This document shows positions 1-23,668 of a stretch of DNA of 64,000 nucleotides, one piece after another. The position numbers and the translations under genes are program-made. Below the pieces are notes generated by a model. The model saw nothing but the letters and a program-made list of their open reading frames with translations, had not been told where the DNA came from and did not search any database. Every line of letters begins with the position of its first letter. Position 1 is the first letter of the stretch. The DNA is from Escherichia coli 042 (GTDB lineage: Bacteria > Pseudomonadota > Gammaproteobacteria > Enterobacterales > Enterobacteriaceae). The DNA lies in NCBI RefSeq assembly GCF_000027125.1, contig NC_017626.1. One strand, 5' to 3'.

Positions 1-469
1 TACAGGGTTCGGTGATGGTATAGCGGTATTTGTGTGCGCCTGTGCGTTCCGGTACAACACACCCCGGCGCATAAGGATGAAGTGATTTTGGCTGCCCGTC
101 CTGCCCCCACTCAATAACCGCATAGGCGTTACCGTTCAGCAGACAGTGACGCATCATTGTGCGTTTAAACTGGTAAGGTGTCTGGCACGAATTAGGCTGC
201 TCATTCAGCAGAATATCTACCGGATGACTGTCCAGCCATTCCCGCGCCTCCCTGCCCTTGTCATTACGTACCAGATACAGATAACACGGCATCGTGGCCA
301 CCGCCTCAGCGATGACAGAAACCGCGTTCATCACAGCAGGCAATGATTCAGCCGTCCCGGCAGAAACATATTCTCCGGATCCGGTATTCGGTACGCCGGA
401 CAGCGCCAGAAAATCATCAATGGACAGGTTACGTTGCTCGCTTTTTTTACGACTAAAAGGCCACCACAT
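1..469 (-). CDS. phage portal protein, HK97-type (N-terminal part only; gene continues beyond window start)
   Basis: Hand translation of minus strand from ATG at 469-467 gives MWWPFSRKKSEQRNLSIDDFLAL..., an N-terminus typical of HK97-family portals; start overlaps protease stop (ATGA). Absent from ORF track because the stop lies outside the window. Confidence 0.5.
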   Translation of the reverse strand, partial: MWWPFSRKKSEQRNLSIDDFLALSGVPNTGSGEYVSAGTAESLPAVMNAVSVIAEAVATMPCYLYLVRNDKGREAREWLDSHPVDILLNEQPNSCQTPYQFKRTMMRHCLLNGNAYAVIEWGQDGQPKSLHPYAPGCVVPERTGAHKYRYTITEPC

Positions 470-470
470 A

Positions 471-1031
471 TCACAACCCCGCCAGTTCAGCCCAGCGATG
501 ACGATTATTTCCTGCCGGGCGTAATTCAGGGTGCTGTGCAAACAACGAACGGTGGGCAATCTCCACGCCAGATTCTGGATAAGCAGGCATCGACGTTATT
601 GTGATTTCTCGGAGTTCAGCGGCGGTTACGGTACGCAAATACGGTTTTTGCGCGATATTCCATTCTTCGCATAATGCGCGAAAGCCAAAGCTCATTCCTG
701 TAATGTCGCCACGCGACACCAGCGTGAGCACATCTTTTCCAAGCTGGGTATCAGGCGGTGTCAGTTCAAAACGTAGCCCGGTGTTGTCCCCAGTCAGTAC
801 CAGAGTGCCGGATTTGGTGCGCCCCAGCAGTTGGGTATAGTCATGCTCATACAGGCAGCGCACATCATTACCCGCCGCCAGATAGTCAGCAAAAGCCCCC
901 GGCGTGAACTGTTCGCGGAATTCGTCCCAGATAATTTCTGAAAGGCTGTTCCAGCGAACGGCATACCCCACCAGCTTTTTATTGCTGGCGGTCAGTTCAG
1001 ATGTGCGGATTTCAAAATCGGTGTTTTTCAT
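471..1031 (-). CDS. HK97-family prohead maturation protease (S78)
   Basis: 186 aa; motif pattern VGYA..WN...D.F.E.F.PGAF......HD...LGRT.SGTL.L..D..GL.F......GD..G.SFGF typical of prohead proteases. Confidence 0.8.
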   Translation of the reverse strand: MKNTDFEIRTSELTASNKKLVGYAVRWNSLSEIIWDEFREQFTPGAFADYLAAGNDVRCLYEHDYTQLLGRTKSGTLVLTGDNTGLRFELTPPDTQLGKDVLTLVSRGDITGMSFGFRALCEEWNIAQKPYLRTVTAAELREITITSMPAYPESGVEIAHRSLFAQHPELRPAGNNRHRWAELAGL

Positions 1032-1085
1032 CGGTGTACTCCATAAAGCTGAAAAAGGAGGCCGCAGCCTCCTCCTTACTCATGA

Positions 1086-2255
1086 CTAGCCAGCTTTCAT
1101 TTCCAGAATTTTGATGGCGTTTGAATCCACCACACCACCGCCCAGATATTTATCCGTGTGGACCTTGTAGAATCCGGGTTCAGTAATGTTGTCCGGTCGG
1201 GTGCGAATCCCTGTTACATGATCAACGATGAAATAACCACGACTGAAATCGCCAACCGCTAGCGGTGCTTTTCCTGCGCCGATGTCCGGCATGGACTCCA
1301 GGCAGAAAACAGGACGACCAAGCAACATATCCGGCGCACCTTCTTTAAGGCTGTCGCGCCAGATATAATCGCCATTCTCATTTTTCAGCTTCTGTAGTGT
1401 CCCTGCCGTGCCCGAGTTCATCACCCAGACGGCATTTTTGCGGTATTTCGCTTTCAGCTTGTAGAGAATGTCGATCAGTTCGTCCGCTGTAATGGCGGTT
1501 CCACTTGCCGCTACCACTTTTTCAATGGTGCCAAAAGCGCGGGTTTTGTCACTGGTCGCCGCACGGGTGTAAGCCATGAAGCCTTTCGGCTTGCCGTTAC
1601 CGTCGCCATTAACAAAATCATCCTCTTCGGTGCTGGCGAACGTGTCGGCAATTTCGGAGGATAACCAGCCCAGAATATCCACCTCTGAAAAATCCAGGAT
1701 TTCCTGCGTGGTTTTCGGGTAGGCGTAGATCGGATTCAGCTTGATGGTTACACGTTCAATTTTCGGGGTGTTGGTTTCACTACGTGCGCTGCCTTCTGTG
1801 CCTCGTCCTACAGTTGCGCCGCCAGTGGAAACCAGTTTCTGAAACTCATTTGATTTTGCGGTCTTCACGGTCGCGATCACGCGCATAACACTGTCATCCT
1901 GTAGCTGGCGCATGACTTCGCGATCAAGCTCAGGAATTACGGTATATCCGCCATCCCTGCCGCTGTCAGTGCTGGTGGTCAGTGATCGCACATCTCCGGT
2001 TACGATGTAGTTACGCAATTCATCAGATGATAATTTCTGGATGCCCGTTCCTGGCTTGCTGCGTTCTTCATCAGCCACAGACTCGAGGCGGGAAATTTCT
2101 GTGTCGAGGGAATCGGCTTTTGCACGCAGTTCATCAAACTGTTTGCCCTCGTCATCGTTCAGGCTGCGGTTTTCACTGTCGGCTTTTTCCAGCAGGGATC
2201 GCATCTGGTTTTTCAGGGCGGTTTTTTGCTGGCGGAGTTCGATTAATTTCTTCAT
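1086..2255 (-). CDS. HK97-type major capsid protein with N-terminal coiled-coil delta/scaffold domain
   Basis: 389 aa; charged coiled-coil N-terminus then FVNGDGNG...NSGT...GDYIW pattern characteristic of HK97-fold capsid proteins. Confidence 0.85.
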   Translation of the reverse strand: MKKLIELRQQKTALKNQMRSLLEKADSENRSLNDDEGKQFDELRAKADSLDTEISRLESVADEERSKPGTGIQKLSSDELRNYIVTGDVRSLTTSTDSGRDGGYTVIPELDREVMRQLQDDSVMRVIATVKTAKSNEFQKLVSTGGATVGRGTEGSARSETNTPKIERVTIKLNPIYAYPKTTQEILDFSEVDILGWLSSEIADTFASTEEDDFVNGDGNGKPKGFMAYTRAATSDKTRAFGTIEKVVAASGTAITADELIDILYKLKAKYRKNAVWVMNSGTAGTLQKLKNENGDYIWRDSLKEGAPDMLLGRPVFCLESMPDIGAGKAPLAVGDFSRGYFIVDHVTGIRTRPDNITEPGFYKVHTDKYLGGGVVDSNAIKILEMKAG

Positions 2256-2541
2256 GAAGGTTTTCTCGTATTGGTTAAGATTCAGGACGTGAAACCAACA
2301 CGGAGGGAGCGCCGCCCGACACTCTCGGCATCTCGCAGATCAACCCGGCATCGCGCAGGGGGTCAGGCGGCATTGTGGCGGCTCACGTCTGAGTGCCACA
2401 CGCCAACATATACATAAAAATCAGTATGTAAACACCTGTCAGTAAGGCCGAACAACCACGAAAAAACACGAACAAATAATTTACAAAAGAAGTAAACCAT
2501 GGCCTATTATTGCTACCTCTGACTACAACAAAGGACGCATC

Positions 2542-3048
2542 ATGAATTTAAGCGCAATGGTATACCCTGATACTTTCATAATTAATGGCGAATCATTTAA
2601 AGGTAAAAGAAACGCAAAAGAAAACAAGGTATTAATTCCATATACAAATGAACCGGAAGTAACTATTGGTCAACACATTATCCAGTGTGTCGGTAAAAAC
2701 GAGATAAATCTAAAAATTATAGATATGAAGTTGCTTCCCAATGGAACCCTCAGACAGGGAACCAACCATCCAAATATGTTGACGCTCTATATTGAAAATA
2801 TCACGGGAAATGAACATATGACGCCACCTAAAAGTAATACATTTAACATTGGTTCAATTAGTGGTAATCAAGTGCAGATAGGTGAGCATAACCATATGCT
2901 GGTAAACATCAGCATCACTGAACTGGTTGAAAAAGTCTCTAAATCGGGGGATGTACAAGCCAAATCAGTATTAAAGCAGTTACTGGAAAACAGTACCGTT
3001 GCCAGCATTGTTGGGGCTGGCGCAAGTGCCTTAATAGGCTTACTGTAA
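2542..3048 (+). CDS. hypothetical protein, AT-rich orphan cargo gene in satellite island
   Basis: 168 aa ORF with AAAGGA RBS upstream; only sizeable plus-strand gene in a minus-strand block; strongly AT-rich codon usage; hydrophobic Gly/Ala-rich C-terminus (VASIVGAGASALIGLL); no recognisable family. Confidence 0.55.
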   Translation: MNLSAMVYPDTFIINGESFKGKRNAKENKVLIPYTNEPEVTIGQHIIQCVGKNEINLKIIDMKLLPNGTLRQGTNHPNMLTLYIENITGNEHMTPPKSNTFNIGSISGNQVQIGEHNHMLVNISITELVEKVSKSGDVQAKSVLKQLLENSTVASIVGAGASALIGLL

Positions 3049-3083
3049 AAAAATGGCCTGGATTTTACCAGGCCTTTATCATT

Positions 3084-3371
3084 TTACCGTTTCACGGGAT
3101 CCCGCATTCTGCTTCTTAGTTTCCACAGGTATTCGATCATCGCTTCCACCTGCTCACGGTTGGTTGCGAAAATTTCCCCGGTCAGTGAGCTGCGCAGAAA
3201 ATCATGATGATCCACAACAAACAACGCATCGGAAGAAAGCAGACGGCGATATTTTTTTGCTGTCGTGGTTTCCAGATCATCAAAACCATGAAACTTTTTA
3301 TGTTGCTGAACTTCTTCAAATGTCACAGGCATGTTTCCTCCTGCTACCACGATACCAGAAACAGTTAACAA
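3084..3371 (-). CDS. hypothetical protein
   Basis: 95 aa ORF co-oriented with island replication genes; no recognisable motif. Confidence 0.35.
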   Translation of the reverse strand: MLTVSGIVVAGGNMPVTFEEVQQHKKFHGFDDLETTTAKKYRRLLSSDALFVVDHHDFLRSSLTGEIFATNREQVEAMIEYLWKLRSRMRDPVKR

Positions 3372-3673
3372 CCGTTATCAATTATCCCCTTTTTTTTCGG
3401 GTAGTTCCTGAACATCTCACCGCCAGGTTTCTGTAAGCCCATCCCGGTATGTGTGCGGTTTATGGCCTCTTTCAGTATTCCGAAATTATCCGGTATGACT
3501 GGTTGGCGCGCTGCCTTACGGATACATTCCGCGCGACGCTTTGCCACCTGTTCGCGCTCCTTGTCAGTGCTCACCAGCCACATAACATCAGCCCAACGTG
3601 CCGCCGCTCTCCGGTACAGCCCTTTAGCCTCCAGTTCTTCCGCTTTGCTGTCTTTAATCATGCTGTACCTCAC
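3365..3673 (-). CDS. PerC-family transcriptional activator-like protein
   Basis: 102 aa; MIKDSKAEELEAKGLYRRAAARWADVM resembles PerC-family N-terminus. Confidence 0.5.
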   Translation of the reverse strand: MRYSMIKDSKAEELEAKGLYRRAAARWADVMWLVSTDKEREQVAKRRAECIRKAARQPVIPDNFGILKEAINRTHTGMGLQKPGGEMFRNYPKKKGIIDNGC

Positions 3674-3676
3674 TGC

Positions 3677-4102
3677 TTAAAACGGTATCCCGTCCCCGTA
3701 CGGATCATCGTGCTGGCCTGTCTGTTGTTTTGCCCTGTTCAGTGCGTCAGTAGCCTGGCCCTGCTGGCCTTTTTTGCCGCCCGGTCGCGCCGTTCGCGCA
3801 CTGATTACGCTGTCTGCGATGACCTGCCAGCCCTGCCGCATTTCGCCGTTCTGGCCTGTCCACTGGCTTACCTGCATGTTACCCGCCACACTCACCAGTT
3901 CGCCTTTCTGGTGTTTTGCCAGTGCATCGGCCTGTCTGCCAAACGCCAGGACGGATAACCACATCGTCGCCGTTCCGTCATCTGCCTGGCTGCACGGCAG
4001 GGGAACCGCCATACTCGCCATAGCCATTTGTGTCCCCTTGCTGGTGGTCTTTAACTGCGGGTCAGCCACCAGCCGCCCGTAAGCCGCTATCTGTGCTGTC
4101 AT
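3677..4102 (-). CDS. single-stranded DNA-binding protein-like (OB-fold)
   Basis: 141 aa; OB-fold-like core followed by Gly/Gln-rich tail and acidic C-terminal end (DDPYGDGIPF) as in SSB proteins. Confidence 0.55.
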   Translation of the reverse strand: MTAQIAAYGRLVADPQLKTTSKGTQMAMASMAVPLPCSQADDGTATMWLSVLAFGRQADALAKHQKGELVSVAGNMQVSQWTGQNGEMRQGWQVIADSVISARTARPGGKKGQQGQATDALNRAKQQTGQHDDPYGDGIPF

Positions 4103-4312
4103 GCTGTCTGTTCTCCGGTTTTAACGTTGATTGTTACGCTTGTTTACACCCTTACGGTGAAATTCTGCGGGTTATAATCGCACTTTTGCGGGTTATAACT
4201 GCCGTTTTGCGGGTTACGTGCGGGTTACTGATTTCCTTTTTATTCATACAGTTAATGCACTTATACACAGGATAACCCGCATAACCCGCAACTTTTCACC
4301 TCACACAGGGGG

Positions 4313-6433
4313 TTAATCTTCTGCCTCAGGCTGGAACATCAGCACGTAAAAAACATGCTGCTTCCCCCCAATTTTGCCGAGCGCCTTTTTCTTGTAACGG
4401 CGATCGTTACCCGCTTCCAGCATTCCGGCAGCACTCAACGCGCGGGCAAAGTGAGACGGATTAAATCCCTGTGCTATCTCACCCTCAAATACATGCGGGA
4501 ACGTGTAAAAACGGAACTCGTCATCTTCGTTTCTGATACTCCCCTTTCTGTATCCGGCAAGCTCTTTAATCGGTAAATCACGCTCGTCGGTGTTGGGCCA
4601 CGGAAGGTATCTGCTGAATCCGAACGACGCTAAAAAAGCCTCTGCCTGTTCAACCATCTGTTTAAACTCCCTGTTACCCGTGCCGAACTCCTTCACCCAG
4701 GCATTAAAATTATGCTGAATGGCATCGCGGCACGCCTGAACATCCCAACCAGTAATATGGACGGAAAGCACCAGCGCCGACTCCAGCATGGCGAATCGTT
4801 CCCCCACACGGTGAACCTGTTCGCCGTAACTCTCCGGTATCAGGTTGCGCCACCGTTCACGGCATGCCCTTACCGTATCCTTTGCCTCCTGCTGGTGGTC
4901 TGCCAGCCATTTAACCCATTCACGCCCCGCCGCCCCGTGATTTTCTGTCCAGGCATCCTTTAACGCGTCTGCGTGTGCCTTTCCGGTGCTGTATTCGTGA
5001 AACTGCGTGGCTTTTTCCATTGGCACGTTAAGCAGGCGGACAAGCTGCCCCGCCTTGACTTTTATCCCCTCCGTTTTGAGGAATGTCTCAACGTCCATTT
5101 CTCCGGTGCTGATTGCCACCGTGCGCCAGTGTTTGATCTCCCTGTTGCCGCCGTCCTTCGCCCCCTGTAATTTCCCCGAACCGTTAAACAGCGTATAAGC
5201 CGACGTGGACACTTCCCGCGCGTTTCCGGCCTGACCTATTTCATCCAGGGGTAATAGCCCGTCATTGTGCGCCTCTGCCTCGTTGGCGATGCCTAACGCT
5301 GTACCGTACCAGGTCAGCCGTTGCGCGTCCGGCTCTCCCCATAAACTGGATGCGATGTTCTGTGTGGTGGTTTTCCCTGCCGATGACTGTTCGAAAAGAT
5401 GTACCCCGAAGCCGTCAGCACCCACCAGCCCGATTAATGGTGCGGATAACGATACCGCCACACCCAGCATCATGGACGGATTACCACCAGCCAGCCGCGC
5501 AACGGTATCGCGCCAGCCCTCCGCCGTTCCTGCCACAGAATAGCCATTAACGGCAGCCGTTTTTCCGGTAAACAGGATCGGTTTTTCAGACTCACCAATG
5601 ACTGAACCGTCCGGCATGATGTACGCACCAAAATGCCAGCCCGTTGTTGTGCTTAACTGCCATTCCTCATGGTTTCCGCTTAACTGCATCCAGTCAGCCA
5701 GGATAGCCCTGTATTTGCCGTTAGTTGTTACGTTAAGGCCGTGGTCTTTCAGCAACCGCCAGCCGTCACGGTCGCCAATGCCCCCGCACGGAACCGCCAT
5801 TGTGATGACTTCATGGTTTGCGGGTTTCTTCCAGCGCATCACGCGGTAATGCTCTTTGCCGATTGTCCCCGTTCCCAGTAGTTCAAGCGGGGAACATAAC
5901 CACGTCTCAGGCCGGATAATTTCGCCTGACTGCTTGTCAACTTTGGGCGTTACCCAGAAAACACCATCGGCGCGACTTTCAACGCGGGGCTTTAATTCAT
6001 CATCGCCCTGGCTTTCTGTGATTTTTTTCTTTAAGGGCAACACCAGACTTTCCCCGCGCTCGTATTCGTCTTTCAGCCGGGCAAGCTGCGGTGTCCAGTC
6101 CTCCAGTAGTTCACCGTTCTCGTCACAAAAACTGGCTTCCTTAACACCAGCCACTGCCAGCAGGGTTTCAATCTGTAACGCCTGTCTGTCATCCAGCTTT
6201 CCGGCACGTCTGACCATGGCGCGTAACCGTCCATCATCCACAATACGCAGGTTTTCCAGATTACCCAGGTCACGCCGCCCGAGATAAACAGGTGGTATTT
6301 TGTCGCCGCGCTTTCTGGCTTCTCCGCCCTGCATGTAATGCTCTGCGTGGCTGTATGCGTCATCCCCCGCAAAAATCACTGCATCCTCGCCTTTATCTTT
6401 CGGTAACAGTTTTACGTTCGGTGCCAGTTTCAT
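4313..6433 (-). CDS. satellite/P4-family primase-helicase-like replication protein (DUF927/Toprim-like)
   Basis: 706 aa; central Walker A-like SSAGKTT; size and position after int/alpA match replication proteins of P4-like and PICI elements. Confidence 0.6.
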   Translation of the reverse strand: MKLAPNVKLLPKDKGEDAVIFAGDDAYSHAEHYMQGGEARKRGDKIPPVYLGRRDLGNLENLRIVDDGRLRAMVRRAGKLDDRQALQIETLLAVAGVKEASFCDENGELLEDWTPQLARLKDEYERGESLVLPLKKKITESQGDDELKPRVESRADGVFWVTPKVDKQSGEIIRPETWLCSPLELLGTGTIGKEHYRVMRWKKPANHEVITMAVPCGGIGDRDGWRLLKDHGLNVTTNGKYRAILADWMQLSGNHEEWQLSTTTGWHFGAYIMPDGSVIGESEKPILFTGKTAAVNGYSVAGTAEGWRDTVARLAGGNPSMMLGVAVSLSAPLIGLVGADGFGVHLFEQSSAGKTTTQNIASSLWGEPDAQRLTWYGTALGIANEAEAHNDGLLPLDEIGQAGNAREVSTSAYTLFNGSGKLQGAKDGGNREIKHWRTVAISTGEMDVETFLKTEGIKVKAGQLVRLLNVPMEKATQFHEYSTGKAHADALKDAWTENHGAAGREWVKWLADHQQEAKDTVRACRERWRNLIPESYGEQVHRVGERFAMLESALVLSVHITGWDVQACRDAIQHNFNAWVKEFGTGNREFKQMVEQAEAFLASFGFSRYLPWPNTDERDLPIKELAGYRKGSIRNEDDEFRFYTFPHVFEGEIAQGFNPSHFARALSAAGMLEAGNDRRYKKKALGKIGGKQHVFYVLMFQPEAED

Positions 6434-6729
6434 TTTTTACCTCTGGATGCGCTGAGCATGCTTTTTATTTTCTTAATATTTTCCCGTGCTTTTTCCCTGC
6501 TGGTGGGCTTACCGCGTGTTGCGTTCTGTACCAGAGAAAAATCACGCCGGAACTGATAAACAGGCATCACGCAGTCATAGCCGTACCCATCACGGCGGTA
6601 AGTAACGCACCGTCCCGCCACGCTTTTAATCGTTACCGTGCCGCCGTAGTTATCCCGGAAAATATCGCCGGGGCGGATTTCAGGCCGAGCGGGGCCGCTG
6701 GCAGTAAAGCCAGAAATTTTCTGTTTCAT
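6430..6729 (-). CDS. hypothetical protein
   Basis: 99 aa ORF, stop overlaps primase start; basic C-terminus. Confidence 0.4.
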   Translation of the reverse strand: MKQKISGFTASGPARPEIRPGDIFRDNYGGTVTIKSVAGRCVTYRRDGYGYDCVMPVYQFRRDFSLVQNATRGKPTSREKARENIKKIKSMLSASRGKK

Positions 6730-6734
6730 GGTTT

Positions 6735-6968
6735 TTATTTCCCGGTGTGTTGCTCTTTATATCTGTCGTGCAAGATGTCTATTTCTTGCAGTTCATTTAT
6801 TACAGGCTCAAGAAGCGTTATTAATGCTGTTGCAATATTGCTGTTGCGTTTATCTCTTTCATTATCGCCAAGCGTTTCAAGCCATAAGCGCAATATTTCA
6901 AGCATGTTTTCACTGTAAGCAAGTGCGCTGTATGCATGATCTACTGTGTCATTGTAAATATCATGCAT
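6735..6968 (-). CDS. hypothetical protein
   Basis: 77 aa ORF tightly packed in operon. Confidence 0.35.
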   Translation of the reverse strand: MHDIYNDTVDHAYSALAYSENMLEILRLWLETLGDNERDKRNSNIATALITLLEPVINELQEIDILHDRYKEQHTGK

Positions 6969-6971
6969 GGC

Positions 6972-7172
6972 TCACCCCCCCTGAATATTCGCGTTAATCA
7001 TTCCGACACGCTCTGCGAGTTCCTGTAATGATTCCCTTGTTGCGACAATTGCTTCATCTGGCAGGTGGTAATTACTCACCACGCGACCTTTATCCACATT
7101 GACTAGCAACTGCCCGGTGAATTTCTCACGAAACTGGATGCGGTTAAGGTCGGTAAGTGACAGGTTAATCAT
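6972..7172 (-). CDS. hypothetical protein
   Basis: 66 aa ORF, first gene after regulatory region. Confidence 0.35.
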   Translation of the reverse strand: MINLSLTDLNRIQFREKFTGQLLVNVDKGRVVSNYHLPDEAIVATRESLQELAERVGMINANIQGG

Positions 7173-7445
7173 GGTGTACCCCCTGACGAATACGGGCGGC
7201 GAATACCATCACGCAGCCAGCCGGGGATTGCTGGCGTGCTTCCTGTTCGCTGGTGGCCTCAATGGTAATCACGCGCGGTTGTGCCGTGCTCAGGGCGATA
7301 AAACGCCAGATATATTTATTCAGGTTGTGCGAGTCCCGCCCTTGCGGGTGTGTGGTATGATTTCTCATAGCTACCTCGATACTCTTGCTATCGTTGGTGG
7401 TTAGACGCCCTGCATGTGTTGCGAGCACTGCGGGGCGTTGCTTAA

Positions 7446-7556
7446 TTTGAGTGACAAAACTCAAACTGTGCGCACAGATTAAAATCATGTGTGCGCACAT
7501 GTCAATACTTAACATCTCATTTTTTTTGCTGTATTGTGTGCGCCCATAAAGTCCAT
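7446..7556. promoter_or_regulatory. candidate operator/switch region of the satellite island
   Basis: Perfect palindrome TGTGCGCACA at 7467-7476 and 7490-7499 (23 bp centre-to-centre), half-site TGTGCGCC at 7547; inverted repeat TTTGAGT-N6-ACTCAAA at 7446-7465; lies between oppositely oriented gene blocks. Confidence 0.5.
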
Positions 7557-7573
7557 TTAAGTGAGGTGCATCA

Positions 7574-7771
7574 ATGTCTAGCGGTAACACAAACAACAAA
7601 TCAGCAAAGAAAAATATTCGATTCCCACATGAGCTTATAGATGGGATTGATGCCAGCGTTGAACAAGAAAAATTAACTAATCCTAGTGCTAATTTTTCCG
7701 CATGGGTCTTAGATGCCTGTGGACGCAAATTAAAATATGAACAGCGCCGGAAGGCCAAAGAATCAGAATAA
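7574..7771 (+). CDS. small DNA-binding protein, possibly ribbon-helix-helix (candidate island regulator)
   Basis: 65 aa ORF immediately downstream of palindrome cluster; fold assignment is a guess. Confidence 0.4.
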   Translation: MSSGNTNNKSAKKNIRFPHELIDGIDASVEQEKLTNPSANFSAWVLDACGRKLKYEQRRKAKESE

Positions 7772-7813
7772 TCACTATCAGCGCCGTGGTGTGAGTAACT
7801 ACGGCGCATTGCT

Positions 7814-8002
7814 ATGCAGGACAACACAATGACCGATAAAGAATTGACCAAAACATTATCACCGACACGGAAAAGACGGCGCAGAAAGATAGAGCATGAA
7901 TCAGAAAGATTCGCACCTTGTTCGTTTGCTCTTGAGAAATTCCTTAAAGAGCGCAGGAAAAAGCTCTCGTTGCAAACCTTGGAACGAACCAAATCTGACT
8001 GA
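7814..8002 (+). CDS. hypothetical small basic protein
   Basis: 62 aa ORF, Arg/Lys-rich. Confidence 0.3.
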   Translation: MQDNTMTDKELTKTLSPTRKRRRRKIEHESERFAPCSFALEKFLKERRKKLSLQTLERTKSD

Positions 8003-8382
8003 TCACATTGCCCACCAGCCGCAAATGTGGCATTGTTGGTGATGCTTTTGTTTTCCCTTGTTCCCACTGGCGACCCTTTTGCGGTCGCCTTTGTTTTGCC
8101 TGTTATCCGGCAATAGTGGCGCTTCGTCACCTGTCTGATATAATTCCACAGCTTATATTCATTTTTTGCGCAGTAGGTTAATTGTTCGCAAGGGCGCTCC
8201 GGCAACGGGGCGCTTTTTGTTTTTACCCACCAGCACAATAAAAATCTTCATTTTCCATTTTTGTAAAATTTCATGCTTTCCGGACGACTGGTCATATGTC
8301 ATTTTTTAGCAGAAGATTTTGCCTTGCTGGTGGGTAGCTTCCCGGTCAACACGATGTACCGTATAATCAACACCGCGTGTGG

Positions 8383-8961
8383 TTACTGAATACGCTCACC
8401 AAAGTAAAACTCAGGCTGGTATTCACGTATCAGCCTTTTTTCTTCTTCCTCCAGCTCACGCTTTTTGCGCTTACATGCCTGTAGCTCCCTCCCCTTCTCA
8501 CTGGCACTTATCTGGTATTGCTCTTTGCGGCGGGAAAAATCCTGTAATGCGCCCCACGGGATACCATAAGCCCCCGTTTTTCTGATACCCGGTATCACAT
8601 TTCTGAATACCCAGTTACTGAAACGATGAGCAAATGTGCCAGGCGTCGTTGCTTTGCGGCTGCGGGCTATTAGTTTGTAGAAACCTGATTCGGAGATAAT
8701 GCTCATATTCTGATTTCCTCCGGGGGTGTAAGTTAAATTTACTCCCTTTTCGTCATCATCAAGCATCTGCAACGCCGTACGCGAATTGGTCAGTTCCAGC
8801 GCAGCACAAACATCCTTTGCAACAAACCACGGATCGCCGTTTAGATACACCACACGAACATCCACGCCATCAAAGCGCAGAACGACCAGATCACGAATAT
8901 CACAGAATTTTTTCACATGACGTGCGTCACCCTTGCCCGTCACGGCAATATTTTTATTCAT
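8383..8961 (-). CDS. Bro-N domain protein (phage antirepressor-like)
   Basis: 192 aa; N-terminal region with WFVAKDVCAALEL motif typical of BRO-N/antirepressor domains. Confidence 0.6.
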   Translation of the reverse strand: MNKNIAVTGKGDARHVKKFCDIRDLVVLRFDGVDVRVVYLNGDPWFVAKDVCAALELTNSRTALQMLDDDEKGVNLTYTPGGNQNMSIISESGFYKLIARSRKATTPGTFAHRFSNWVFRNVIPGIRKTGAYGIPWGALQDFSRRKEQYQISASEKGRELQACKRKKRELEEEEKRLIREYQPEFYFGERIQ

Positions 8962-9018
8962 TGCTTTTTACCTCACATACAAAAAACCCCGCATTGCGTG
9001 GTGCGGGGTTGTCGGTAA

Positions 9019-9327
9019 TTACTTATTGGCGTTTTTGTATGGGCTGTTTACTTCCTTTACTCCTGGCGGATGCATAACCCACCAGAGCACATCAGAGAGC
9101 AACCAGGAAACAGACACTTTCCCTAAATGAGCACGAGCAGGAAATGCTCCCTCCTGTTCAAGTACCCAACGTCTGCTTCTTGAAAGCCCGGTACGATTGG
9201 CACACTCATGTTCGCGTATACGGCGATCATACGGTTCGCCATGATCTTTCAGAATCTGAATGCGTTCTTCGGGTGTAGGATAAATAAATTTTTGCATAAA
9301 AATATCACCTATAAAAAAACCCGCCAA
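9019..9327 (-). CDS. AlpA-like transcriptional regulator
   Basis: 102 aa; GLSRSRRWVLEQEGAFPAR pattern similar to AlpA/phage regulatory family. Confidence 0.5.
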   Translation of the reverse strand: MAGFFIGDIFMQKFIYPTPEERIQILKDHGEPYDRRIREHECANRTGLSRSRRWVLEQEGAFPARAHLGKVSVSWLLSDVLWWVMHPPGVKEVNSPYKNANK

Positions 9328-9360
9328 AAGACGGGTTGATTATATCTCATTTAATTTAGC

Positions 9361-9594
9361 TCAGGGTTTCCATTCACCTTTTACCCATTCCAGCACCTCA
9401 GATAAGCGCCAGACTTTTGTTTGTGGGCCAATACATATTTTTCGTGGAAATTTTCCTTCCTTTTCAAGTAACGATCTGTGTCTCCTGCCAAGAGCGGTTA
9501 ACCATGCACATTCATCTTCCTTAATCATCCTGTCGATTGTTTCATCATTTTCAAGTTCTTCACGCGTAACTATTTGAATCATTACTGTCACCAC
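9361..9594 (-). CDS. alpA: AlpA-family prophage regulatory protein
   Basis: 77 aa; HTH then FPRKICIGPQTKVWRLSEVLEWV, classic AlpA signature; directly downstream of integrase. Confidence 0.65.
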   Translation of the reverse strand: MVTVMIQIVTREELENDETIDRMIKEDECAWLTALGRRHRSLLEKEGKFPRKICIGPQTKVWRLSEVLEWVKGEWKP

Positions 9595-22026: not shown

Positions 22027-22518
22027 TCACTCTCCTTTGATGCGAATACCAGTGGTACTCATTATCCTGATTTCCCAGAGCACACGAGGAACACCACCGT
22101 TTCCGACTGGATCGCGTTTACTCCGCAGGGCGACGCTTGATTCCGCCCAGCTTTTTCTTGGAGGAAGCTCTTTCACACGAACAAAACCAGCTGCGCGAAG
22201 AGATGCTCCTGATTCATCTGCCCGGGTGTACGTAATACAACGTTGATAACCCATAGCTTTTGCTGCCCGCCAGACAGCACCATAAAGCGCGCTGTTAGCG
22301 TTGCGTTCTCCTGTGGTACATGTGCGATTTACTTCAAGCGTTAATCCATCGTCCAAATGTCGTGCAACAGGTCTACCGGCTGTCGCCACACCTATCAATT
22401 CTCCGGCATCATTTCTCAGACCAATGCTGAATTTATGCCCCACCGGGGGTTTATTGTGTCGGTGATGTCTGGATATAAACGCCTTCGCAACACGAAGAGT
22501 AACCGGTGAAATTTGCAT
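22027..22518 (-). CDS. hypothetical prophage protein
   Basis: ORF 22027-22557; probable start at MQISPVTL. Confidence 0.4.
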   Translation of the reverse strand: MQISPVTLRVAKAFISRHHRHNKPPVGHKFSIGLRNDAGELIGVATAGRPVARHLDDGLTLEVNRTCTTGERNANSALYGAVWRAAKAMGYQRCITYTRADESGASLRAAGFVRVKELPPRKSWAESSVALRSKRDPVGNGGVPRVLWEIRIMSTTGIRIKGE

Positions 22519-22520
22519 TC

Positions 22521-22880
22521 TCACTCTCCTTTGATGCCAATGTTTACAGACTGGCAAGCCTCTTTGAGCACCCAGTCAACAGCGTCTTTCCATGCTCCGG
22601 TTTCGACTGGCGGATTCTCACGCTTTACCTGTTCATAGAAACGCACTGCTTTAATCAATCCTTCTGGTGTCAGTGGCACAGGCGGGGCAGTGAATAACGC
22701 CTGAATTTCATAGTTCGGTCTGTCGTTGCAATCCTCTTTTGTCGGTACATATTTCCAGTCACCAACCCACTGCTTCCCCTGAAAGTCTGTAACGCCTTTT
22801 TTCACGTAGCGATATCGCCATGCCACTGGTTTTGCCTGCCCTGCCTTTTCATGCCCTTCCTGATAATTAATCTCGCTCAT
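22521..22880 (-). CDS. hypothetical prophage protein
   Basis: 119 aa ORF. Confidence 0.4.
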   Translation of the reverse strand: MSEINYQEGHEKAGQAKPVAWRYRYVKKGVTDFQGKQWVGDWKYVPTKEDCNDRPNYEIQALFTAPPVPLTPEGLIKAVRFYEQVKRENPPVETGAWKDAVDWVLKEACQSVNIGIKGE

Positions 22881-23356
22881 TCATCGCCCCACTCATCACA
22901 ATATGCTTCGACCGGTGTTTTCCCTGCTTCATAATCATCACGCCATGCTTCAGCATCAGCGGCACTTCCACCGCGTAACTCTGCATAATCCATTAACAGT
23001 TCATGCCATTCTTCAAAACTGGCGTTATATTTAGTTGAACCAAAATCAGCCATTTTGTTCTTCCTCTTCGTCTTTTATTTCGTGGTATGAGTAATTGCAG
23101 TAGTTAAAGAAAATATCTTTAGCTTCATCCTGTATTTCATCTGGTGTTGCATCATCATCCACTTCGAATTCATCCTCGAAATCTCCACCGGCTATTCCCG
23201 TTTCAATAATTATTTTGAATTTTCGCATTTCACTACCGCCCTTTCGGACGGCCTCCTGATGTTCTGAGGGTGCAGGAATCCCTCCGGTTAAGGATTTAAT
23301 AAAAATCGTTTCTGATTTAAATCTTCGGTATTTAGTTGTTAGTCGGTTTATAGCCT

Positions 23357-23668
23357 TTATGCTTCGGCCTTATTTCTCAGCCATACACAAACCGGGCCAT
23401 CTTCGGTGTCATGTATTGAACCAATAAACCATCCATTGCCCTCTGGTCGTTCCGGTTCCCATGCAGAAATATCAGCATCACACGCATCAAGGTCAGCACA
23501 TCCTTCATCTCTGAAGCAGAGGACGTATTGAAGATTATTTTCCTCCATCCAGGCGTTAAACTCTTCCGTTGAAATATATTCCCGACCGTCACAGAATTTT
23601 TCATATTCAGGATGCGTCCAGCAGCCATATTCATCACGTACTACTGGTATTTCTTTAATTTCATTCAT
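23357..23668 (-). CDS. hypothetical prophage protein
   Basis: 103 aa acidic ORF. Confidence 0.35.
   Translation of the reverse strand: MNEIKEIPVVRDEYGCWTHPEYEKFCDGREYISTEEFNAWMEENNLQYVLCFRDEGCADLDACDADISAWEPERPEGNGWFIGSIHDTEDGPVCVWLRNKAEA

Follow-up and report, generated by a model that had tools for sequence, protein, structure and literature searches.

In the Bab/Agp pair of Escherichia coli antiphage defence, an amyloid motif controls a membrane-targeting death domain (10.1101/2024.11.07.622273), and adjacent genes with a common short motif are the hallmark of amyloid-signalling pairs (10.1101/2024.11.07.622273; 10.1101/2020.01.06.895854). The BASS3/Bell-NLR pairs, the motif of which is RHIM-like, were reported to be confined to multicellular Actinobacteria and Cyanobacteria and to be rare in Proteobacteria; of the 24 bacterial Pfam entries with a RHIM annotation that Dyrka et al. 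mention, they pursued only the ten Bell proteins, and they reported paired motifs only from multicellular taxa (10.1101/2020.01.06.895854). As to location, the mid-island hotspot of phage-inducible chromosomal islands (PICIs), next to pri, has been shown experimentally to carry immune genes, Tai (PMC11364771). The present work deals with one gene in a 64,000-nucleotide stretch of the E. coli 042 genome (contig NC_017626.1, here called the window). Its open reading frame (ORF), at 2542..3048 on the plus strand, codes for a protein of 168 aa and is optional accessory cargo of a capsid-forming PICI (cf-PICI). The product combines an N-terminal beta-barrel, a RHIM-like motif and a helical module with a hydrophobic tail. 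We infer, tentatively and at somewhat less than an even chance, that it acts as a single-protein, phage-triggered, membrane-disrupting abortive-infection effector which is switched by RHIM-type assembly.

The gene had been picked out by an earlier reading of the letters alone (the sequence-only reading), with exactly these limits, as candidate defence or accessory cargo of a variable hotspot. The spacer between the capsid gene and the small gene on its other side was aligned for four islands, which represent filled, empty and alternatively filled sites (alignment A5). The features of the slot are the following.

1086..2255, minus strand: major capsid gene of the island (HK97 fold), left neighbour of the slot
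2489..3074, plus strand: inserted cargo cassette (ribosome-binding site, ORF and terminator hairpin), absent from the empty-site islands; GC content 0.382
2542..3048, plus strand: cargo ORF with ATG start, 168 codons (168 aa), member of PHROG 5789
3084..3371, minus strand: right neighbour of the slot, a small conserved gene of the island (phrog_1957, function unknown); annotated with 249 nt in RefSeq

The flanks were identical in all four islands up to position 2488 (...ATAATTTACAAAA) and again from about 3075. In two of the islands just an A-run and a hairpin lay between the junctions and about 275 bp separated the genes, whereas in the window the slot held a 586-bp insert with the cargo ORF. 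Among the island loci compared, the slot contained the gene in L001, L010 and L022 and an unrelated gene in L008; it was empty in L002 and L009 as well as in all four further islands sampled (L029-L032). The capsid protein of one empty island was exactly identical to that of a gene-bearing island, and islands sharing this identical protein differed only in the presence or absence of the cargo. In 5,426 complete E. coli genomes the 89-nt left flank was detected in 130 and the gene in 50. Presence/absence and replacement polymorphism thus occurred at identical junctions of otherwise collinear elements, and the assignment of the gene as optional accessory cargo in a defined expression slot is strongly supported; it is not a core gene of all related elements. 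Whatever the function of this gene, the precise promoter-[cargo]-terminator slot of the cf-PICIs can be mined for more cargo.

The unrelated gene found in the slot of E. coli ETEC1749 (L008 1989-2462, plus strand; WP_001293446.1) codes for 157 aa, has its own Shine-Dalgarno sequence and uses the same strand and the same junctions. No match to it was found in PADLOC or in PHROGs, and it represents a second uncharacterised cargo of the same hotspot.

The position of the gene could also speak for a role in the life cycle of the satellite itself, for instance as an optional morphogenetic or helper-interference factor which redirects helper tails or heads to the satellite capsids. The gene lies directly beside the capsid gene, the same position is used in cf-PICIs of three genera, and the barrel of the product is stopper-like. 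However, most of the related, otherwise intact islands lack the gene, including those with identical capsid; its transcription runs against that of the packaging operon, head-closure and connector proteins are already supplied by the islands' own genes, and cassette arrays, lambdoid phages and a P2-like prophage carry the gene too, so that it is not confined to satellites. We regard such a role as improbable.

The cargo ORF is a real coding gene. Its composition differs from that of the surroundings, as the sequence-only reading had noted: the GC content is 37.5%, where the neighbours have about 52%. In detail, it is 0.375 and that of third codon positions (GC3) 0.363, as compared with 0.51-0.60 and 0.54-0.67, respectively, in the capsid, protease, PerC, SSB and primase genes, and with a GC content of 0.53 for the whole window. 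The ratio of nonsynonymous to synonymous substitution rates (dN/dS) was 0.29-0.32 in comparison with two variants from E. coli and 0.11 with a homologue from Klebsiella, which indicates purifying selection. A spurious or decaying, functionless ORF, for which one could argue since an AT-rich insert could be junk DNA, is contradicted by these values, by a length that is kept at 168-171 aa over four orders of Gammaproteobacteria, by the confident AlphaFold2 models of its domains and by the very existence of a PHROG family for the protein; its probability is practically negligible. The signals which flank the coding region are listed below.

2480..2510, plus strand: possible sigma-70 promoter, read by eye (TTTACA at 2480-2485, 19-nt spacer, TATTAT at 2505-2510)
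2531..2535, plus strand: ribosome-binding site AAGGA, 6 nt 5' of the ATG, seen in the sequence
3055..3074, either strand: bidirectional intrinsic terminator hairpin GGCCTGG-ATTTTA-CCAGGCC, between the convergent ORF and the hypothetical gene

A ribosome-binding site of the gene's own had also been noted in the sequence-only reading. The -35 hexamer of the candidate promoter is situated in the conserved flank of the island and the -10 hexamer in the cargo; a sigma-70 promoter at the slot junction, from which the cargo would be driven, is possible. A consensus promoter scan reported no plus-strand sigma-70 site, the candidate being missed because its 19-nt spacer exceeds the 18-nt limit of the scan. 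The terminator hairpin (7 bp, GC-rich) starts seven bases past the stop codon of the cargo and folds with -16.6 kcal/mol (z = -3.97 against shuffled sequences); since an A-run and a T-run flank it, either strand scores as an intrinsic terminator. The arms of the hairpin vary between the window and L002, L009 and L008 (A5 columns about 810-835: GGCCTGG/CCAGGCC, ACCCGGG/CCGGGCC(?), ACCTGGA/TCCAGG). The changes in the arms are paired, by which the structure is kept and the sequence altered, and the hairpin seems to travel with the cargo.

The gene had been called an orphan, which did not hold. The protein matched phrog_5789 over its full length (residues 1-168 on profile positions 1-168 of 168, E 3.5e-86). 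This PHROG has no annotation (function unknown), so membership is uninformative on function, and the C-terminal modules of other architectures match its last ~75-90 positions. A search of 5.8 billion proteins gave 98 homologue clusters of 48-90% identity, nearly all of 168-171 aa and all named 'hypothetical', from Escherichia, Enterobacter, Klebsiella, Citrobacter, Salmonella, Yersinia, Serratia, Pectobacterium, Rahnella, Pseudomonas, Shewanella and Xanthomonas; HMMER, run exhaustively against 1.84 billion cluster representatives (50% clustering level), gave 114 matches. The identical and near-identical proteins WP_001053661.1 and WP_001053662.1 are labelled 'hypothetical protein' in RefSeq. 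The NCBIfam scan of the query protein returned no match, and at the sequence level no homology to housekeeping or structural proteins appeared. When the hidden Markov model of the family was compared with the PDB sequences, only chance matches were obtained (CsrA, E 0.006, over a 'GVKGNQVRIG'-type strand; histone H1). The first of these concerns the CsrA homologue PDB 1vpz, where 'VTVLGVKGNQVRIGVNAP' of the family profile was aligned with 'FNIGSVSGEQVQVGNNN'; the match is almost certainly due to chance, and it shows that the motif resembles a beta-hairpin-forming sequence. The literature on the accessions, on the PHROG identifier and on bacterial and phage RHIM proteins, the coverage of which was incomplete so that a prior description is possible, yielded no account of the family. 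The family is uncharacterised, widespread and modular, and carries a RHIM-like motif and a glycine zipper.

The protein was modelled with AlphaFold2 using 117 homologues, with a mean pLDDT (per-residue model confidence) of 82. The parts of the protein are given here with the positions of their codons.

2563..2817, plus strand: N-terminal six-stranded beta-barrel, aa 8-92 (AlphaFold2, pLDDT about 90)
2839..2904, plus strand: RHIM-like motif TFNIGSISGNQVQIGEHNHMLV, aa 100-121, in the linker modelled as disordered
2914..3045, plus strand: C-terminal three-helix module, aa 125-168 (helices 125-135, 138-149 and 151-167; pLDDT 83-92 over 121-168)
2992-3045, plus strand: last hydrophobic helix, aa 151-168, with the small-xxx-small face A154/G158/S162/G166

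According to the sequence-only reading the product had no recognisable motif; this has to be corrected. The linker (aa 95-120; pLDDT <50, and <50 over 105-118) contains the consensus TFNIGS(I/V)SGxQVQ(I/V)GxxN, in which I103, G104, G108, Q112, G114 and N117 are kept in 81-98% of the 117 homologues. The core corresponding to RHIM is V111-Q112-I113-G114-E-H-N117-H-M119, with Q112, G114 and N117 kept in 94-98%. The sole Pfam match of the query was RHIM (PF12721), over NQVQIGEHNHM. When the C-terminal modules were compared with the Pfam RHIM model, 4 of 49 scored E<=1e-3 and 10 of 49 E<=0.1, the best value being 2.6e-6. The relative P0210 matched RHIM with E 8.8e-6 over 19 of 22 model positions, and its motif, IHNSAGIQVGDHNTM, is close to that of RIPK3. 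Among the relatives in AFDB, one is automatically labelled 'RHIM-containing protein' and another 'AbiTii domain-containing'.

The hydrophobic C-terminal tail (...NSTVASIVGAGASALIGLL) proved to be as the sequence-only reading had described it: the Kyte-Doolittle 15-mer maximum is 1.96 at residue 153, and no other part of the protein is as hydrophobic as its last 18 residues. The small-xxx-small pattern is that of glycine-zipper membrane helices. Positions A154, G158, S162 and G166 are occupied by small residues in 95, 100, 84 and 80% of the homologues, and the motif and this face are among the best-kept positions.

About 60 of the retrieved proteins matched only aa ~97-168, i.e. the motif and the helical module, and had unrelated N-terminal regions; the barrel is the part that differs in this wider set of proteins with a common C-terminal module. 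The alternative N-terminal regions were zinc-ribbon-like, DUF2513-like/winged-helix-like, of several helical types, or other small barrels, and one protein of 74 aa consisted of the module alone, with the QVG unit duplicated. RHIM was the only recurrent Pfam family in these other architectures, save for GNAT hits in one fused member. In a Pfam scan of 40 of their members no annotated N-domains were found, only weak DUF2513 and zinc-ribbon hints and one GNAT fusion that is probably due to read-through. When the C-module alignment (A3) served as a profile against the 5.8-billion-protein database, all matches were short or partial proteins, and no annotated architecture was added by them. A constant C-terminal module with exchangeable N-domains is the pattern expected of sensor-effector immune proteins, and the barrel may be regarded as a putative sensor or ligand-binding domain. 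The constant motif-plus-helix module on many N-domains would form a natural library of sensors on one effector.

Some relatives carry extra N-terminal extensions or C-terminal fusions (P0123, 326 aa; P0135, 334 aa; P0102, P0107 and P0108, 250-276 aa). In P0123 a GNAT domain follows a degraded C-module; such members may be cassette read-through or genuine new architectures.

In the slot of the Klebsiella cf-PICI (L015) two plus-strand genes lie 4 nt apart, a gene for 255 aa (6230-6997, plus strand) being upstream of the homologue. The N-domain of the 255-aa protein is common with P0158 (48% identity over 194 aa), and it is followed by a degenerate RHIM-like motif (TFNIDTVNSRYAQFGTNNS) and by a helical module without the hydrophobic tail; no Pfam or PHROG match was found for it. 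The motif is the only BLASTP similarity between the two adjacent proteins (E 6e-4, in a single comparison). That these neighbours share the motif suggests that it mediates homotypic contacts, and the 255-aa protein may act as a partner or regulator, or else as a dominant-negative paralogue. No second motif-bearing ORF was found in the 64-kb window.

The homologues occupy various genomic contexts. Full-length ones were detected in the same slot of the Klebsiella cf-PICI, which has a RepA-type helicase, and of a Serratia cf-PICI with a D5-type primase. The Pseudomonas homologue is situated in the cargo region of a P2-like prophage, beyond gpD and Dam, where it adjoins a HEPN-like gene and an S8 peptidase, while those of Xanthomonas (L006/L007) and Shewanella (L020/L021, two different arrays) lie in arrays of small same-strand genes. 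Distant relatives were found between Rz and HNH/terS in an E. coli phage and between Q and the lysis genes in a Cronobacter phage; a RHIM-positive relative is located at a prophage end beside the lysis cassette, and another with a different N-domain adjoins a BstA-like gene, DUF6602 and YoeB/YefM (L011, GCA_054379055.1). Each of these sites is known as a moron or immunity hotspot. In all hosts the cassette is rich in AT (GC content 37.5% in E. coli, 49-50% in Pseudomonas and Xanthomonas). Since no neighbour is common to all the contexts, the gene would work alone. The long runs of small, regularly spaced genes on the same strand (L006/L007, L020/L021 and L011) resemble chromosomal integron cassette arrays in their layout, and L011 also holds a GNAT cassette.

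These contexts bear on the question whether the gene has to do with phages at all. A membrane-active small protein expressed from an integrated satellite could be a toxin or addiction stabiliser, a competition factor, or a host-benefit or virulence moron. The moron-like layout with its own ribosome-binding site and terminator, the low GC content and the hydrophobic glycine-zipper tail would all suit such a protein, integron-like arrays carry many kinds of adaptive genes, and one of the neighbourhoods includes the YoeB/YefM toxin-antitoxin pair. However, no cognate antitoxin or immunity gene is adjacent in E. coli, Serratia, Pseudomonas, Xanthomonas or Shewanella, a scan of window positions 1-14000 with Rfam gave no RNA, and the protein is without a signal peptide for export; moreover, variable N-domains on a constant effector correspond to the immune pattern mentioned above and not to a simple toxin. 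A function unrelated to phage defence seems unlikely.

The barrel deserves separate consideration. In fold comparison it was stopper-like, i.e. similar to the phage head-closure or stopper proteins (SPP1 gp16-like; Phage_HCP, PF05521). However, the identity is 5-22% and the cargo protein has no Pfam match to that family, PilZ and flavin-reductase-like barrels score almost as well, the gene stands outside the head-tail operon on the opposite strand, and the product has motif and helical modules in addition. Neither membership of the Phage_HCP family nor a position in a head-tail joining operon was found, and the stopper likeness was not reproduced by Foldseek against viral models or by Pfam. 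We therefore treat the barrel as a 'stopper mimic' only as a lead, not as a finding. On it one could build a defence without killing, or superinfection exclusion, in which the protein, tail-anchored in the inner membrane, blocks DNA entry, or its barrel caps or occupies the head-tail connector or the tail end of invading (or helper) phages and disturbs virion assembly in the manner of Tai and Tab; the motif would then be needed for oligomerisation alone. The hotspot argues for this in the same way as for the abortive-infection effector; such interference has been documented for PICI and prophage cargo (PMC11364771; PMC10884400), and cf-PICIs depend on stolen helper tails (10.1101/2022.09.08.507074). 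Against it stand the failure of Foldseek and Pfam to return the stopper likeness, the fact that most relatives join different N-domains to the same C-module, which points to a generic effector and not to a connector mimic, and the absence of a signal peptide or N-terminal transmembrane segment, which are usual for injection blockers. We consider this explanation rather unlikely.

The abortive-infection effector, in turn, could operate as follows. The gene is a self-contained moron cassette which has been dropped into the expression slot of the cf-PICI, between the packaging and the regulation/replication modules. The beta-barrel would sense or bind a phage-derived cue, by which the N-domains become clustered; that this domain is exchanged for unrelated ones in the relatives is as expected of a specificity module. 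The clustered RHIM-like motifs might then nucleate an ordered beta (amyloid-like) oligomer, which would give an all-or-none switch. In the resting state the three-helix bundle would hide the borderline-hydrophobic glycine-zipper helix; the assembly of the motifs would unpack the bundle and align the terminal helices, which could then insert into the inner membrane. The membrane would be permeabilised and the cell depolarised or lysed before the phage cycle is completed, and the infection would be aborted.

The defence interpretation is plausible from the location in moron and immunity hotspots and from the architecture of the protein, but several observations weigh against it. The RHIM match of the query itself is weak and below significance (i-E 0.052, 0.017 for the C-terminal part alone), and the core pattern is missing from ~16% of those retrieved proteins that are 100 aa or longer and have an EAK-like tripeptide (e.g. 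P0133, P0139), which means that the motif is not indispensable for the role of the helical module. The last helix is borderline-hydrophobic for a transmembrane segment (19-aa mean 1.48) and is packed by AlphaFold2 into a soluble bundle; the borderline hydropathy would nevertheless fit a helix that stays packed in such a bundle until its release. Four C-modules joined by Gly-Ser linkers, modelled with AlphaFold2 as a stand-in for a multimer, gave an unusable result (pLDDT 35.6), with long strands in place of the motif. Neither experiment nor homology ties the protein to any known defence protein: the query gave 0 families at E<=1 against PADLOC-DB v2, and for nine relatives PADLOC returned nothing significant, only P0184 to PDC-M15B with E 0.051. 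The E. coli slot shows little cargo diversity, with one alternative gene, and neither cargo matches PADLOC. Finally, genes for superinfection exclusion, virulence and toxins, too, are typically located in moron hotspots.

A bolder form of the abortive-infection reading would make the protein one of a widespread, undescribed class of single-polypeptide death effectors, composed of a sensor, a RHIM-type amyloid switch and a glycine-zipper pore, which unicellular Gammaproteobacteria would harbour on phages, on satellites and in integron cassettes. The barrel would dock on the head-tail connector of an infecting phage or on another of its ring-shaped assembly intermediates, the ring would template 6-12 motifs and nucleate a cross-beta core, and the helices so freed would perforate the inner membrane. 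We hold this form to be quite unlikely; if true, RHIM-based necroptosis-like signalling would reach E. coli and its mobile elements, and the switch would work without a separate NLR partner.

For the island that carries the gene a P4-like satellite was considered. This was rejected on the gene layout of the island, which identifies it as a cf-PICI and corresponds to that of EcCIEDL933 (10.1101/2022.09.08.507074). A copy of the island with 99.9% identity was found in E. coli strain 10, where the order is integrase, helix-turn-helix regulators, BRO-N, Icd-like, DUF4222, DUF927 primase, SSB, PerC, small gene, cargo ORF, capsid, prohead protease, portal, head-closure, connector, HNH, TerS and TerL. 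In the annotation of strain 10 the integrase, the AlpA-type regulator, the primase-replicase and an own capsid-to-TerL set are all present and tail genes are absent, as in cf-PICIs. The statement that the cargo is the only substantial plus-strand gene of the island is fair, the others on this strand being two genes for 59 aa in the RefSeq annotation of the 99.9%-identical island. Its placement between the capsid gene and the minus-strand block of 3084-6433 was likewise borne out; beyond the small gene this block comprises the following.

3365-3673, minus strand: PerC-family activator, beyond the small gene
3677-4102, minus strand: SSB, beyond PerC
4313-6433, minus strand: DUF927 primase, beyond SSB

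In some otherwise collinear cf-PICIs the PerC activator is replaced by a ProQ/FinO-family RNA-binding gene (L009 2220-2762, L030 1969-2499). Replicases of the RepA or D5 type likewise stand in for the primase; the regulation/replication block is mosaic.

The cf-PICI sits within terL of a lambdoid, HK97-type prophage. The window ORF 9560-11983 (minus strand; junction at about 10786-10900) is a chimera in which the N-terminus of TerL (...VNFFTK) reads through into the integrase of the island (MALNKLSDKK...), and in strain 10 the C-terminal piece of TerL (NILTKHMNVW...) is found on the far side of the island (the L001 stretches concerned are 6237-6980 and 22485-23513). In Klebsiella, too, a TerL_ATPase fragment and terS border the cf-PICI with the homologous cargo (L015 13516-14163). 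A resident prophage whose terminase gene is split by a satellite would be disabled as long as the satellite does not excise. At the island ends, where attachment (att) repeats were looked for by exact 12-mers, there was no exact repeat of at least 12 nt, and local alignment gave only a 21-nt imperfect direct repeat, GCAATACACAG[C/T]GCAATACAC, near both ends (window 10804-10824; L001 7048-7068 and 22335-22355). This repeat is an internal GCAATACAC duplication and could be att-related or an arm site of the integrase; its meaning is uncertain.

Compared with the systems mentioned at the outset, the gene resembles Tai (PMC11364771) in its genetic setting, since Tai are single accessory genes of the mid-PICI hotspot and occur also as morons upstream of the lambdoid packaging module, as do the distant homologues of the cargo. 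Membership of Tai was nevertheless rejected: TaiEcA (phi80 orf63) gave an hhalign probability of 0.15% and E 0.4 against the family profile, and phi80 was not among the tblastn matches. A holin was rejected as well, as the protein has one borderline hydrophobic helix, at the C-terminus, the island has no endolysin, and the prophage has a holin and a lysozyme of its own outside the island.

With the RHIM of RIPK1, RIPK3, ZBP1, TRIF and the viral RHIM proteins, the protein shares the core (I/V)Q(I/V)G with xxN and then a hydrophobic residue behind it (VQIGEHNHM in the cargo), and in both cases the motif stands in a disordered region, which for the cargo is a matter of modelling. The corresponding cores are IQIGAYNYM in RIPK1 and VQVGDNNYL in RIPK3. 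In contrast to the RHIM proteins, the cargo comes from a bacterial mobile element, has no kinase or Z-alpha domain and its match is sub-threshold, and the resemblance of its motif to RHIM could be convergent.

The BASS3/Bell-NLR pairs and the fungal HET-S/NWD2 and HELLP/PNT1 have in common with the cargo protein a RHIM-like motif that adjoins a helical domain with a latent membrane-targeting helix, and the Klebsiella locus with its two adjacent motif-sharing genes recalls the BASS3 pairs. However, BASS3/Bell requires an NLR partner and the hydrophobic helix of Bell/HeLo is N-terminal, while the cargo is a single gene of gammaproteobacterial phages and satellites with the helix at the C-terminus. 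In amyloid pairs the motif is located at the C-terminus of the effector and at the N-terminus of the adjacent sensor; in the cargo protein it is internal (aa 100-121 of 168), and the cargo gene is flanked, on the other strand, by the capsid gene and the small gene. At its N-terminus the protein has a beta-barrel and not a Bell/HeLo-like domain with an N-terminal hydrophobic helix, and no NLR/STAND or TPR-GreAB-PIN partner is adjacent in any context examined.

Bab/Agp (BASS11, E. coli ECOR25; bioRxiv 10.1101/2024.11.07.622273) is likewise E. coli cargo of a prophage or mobile-element hotspot, and Bab, too, is small, with a short amyloid-type motif and a small helical domain with a hydrophobic helix; in the proposed logic of both, assembly of the motif would trigger the attack on the membrane. 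The order of the modules is different: in Bab the helical 'Babybell' domain is N-terminal and the motif is at the extreme C-terminus, whereas the cargo protein has the barrel, the motif, the helical module and, at the end, the hydrophobic helix. Bab needs the adjacent sensor Agp with the shared motif and the cargo gene has no partner in the window; the motif family is also different, BASS11 in Bab and RHIM-like in the cargo protein. The mechanism proposed here would mirror HET-S and Bab, with the order of modules inverted and no separate sensor. If true, the protein would be a compact (168 aa) single-gene antiphage suicide module and, after Bab/Agp, a second and architecturally inverted example of amyloid-motif cell death in E. 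coli, and RHIM-like motifs, which are tied to animal necroptosis and to the NLR pairs of filamentous bacteria, would be placed in unicellular Enterobacteria and Pseudomonas and in their phages and satellites.

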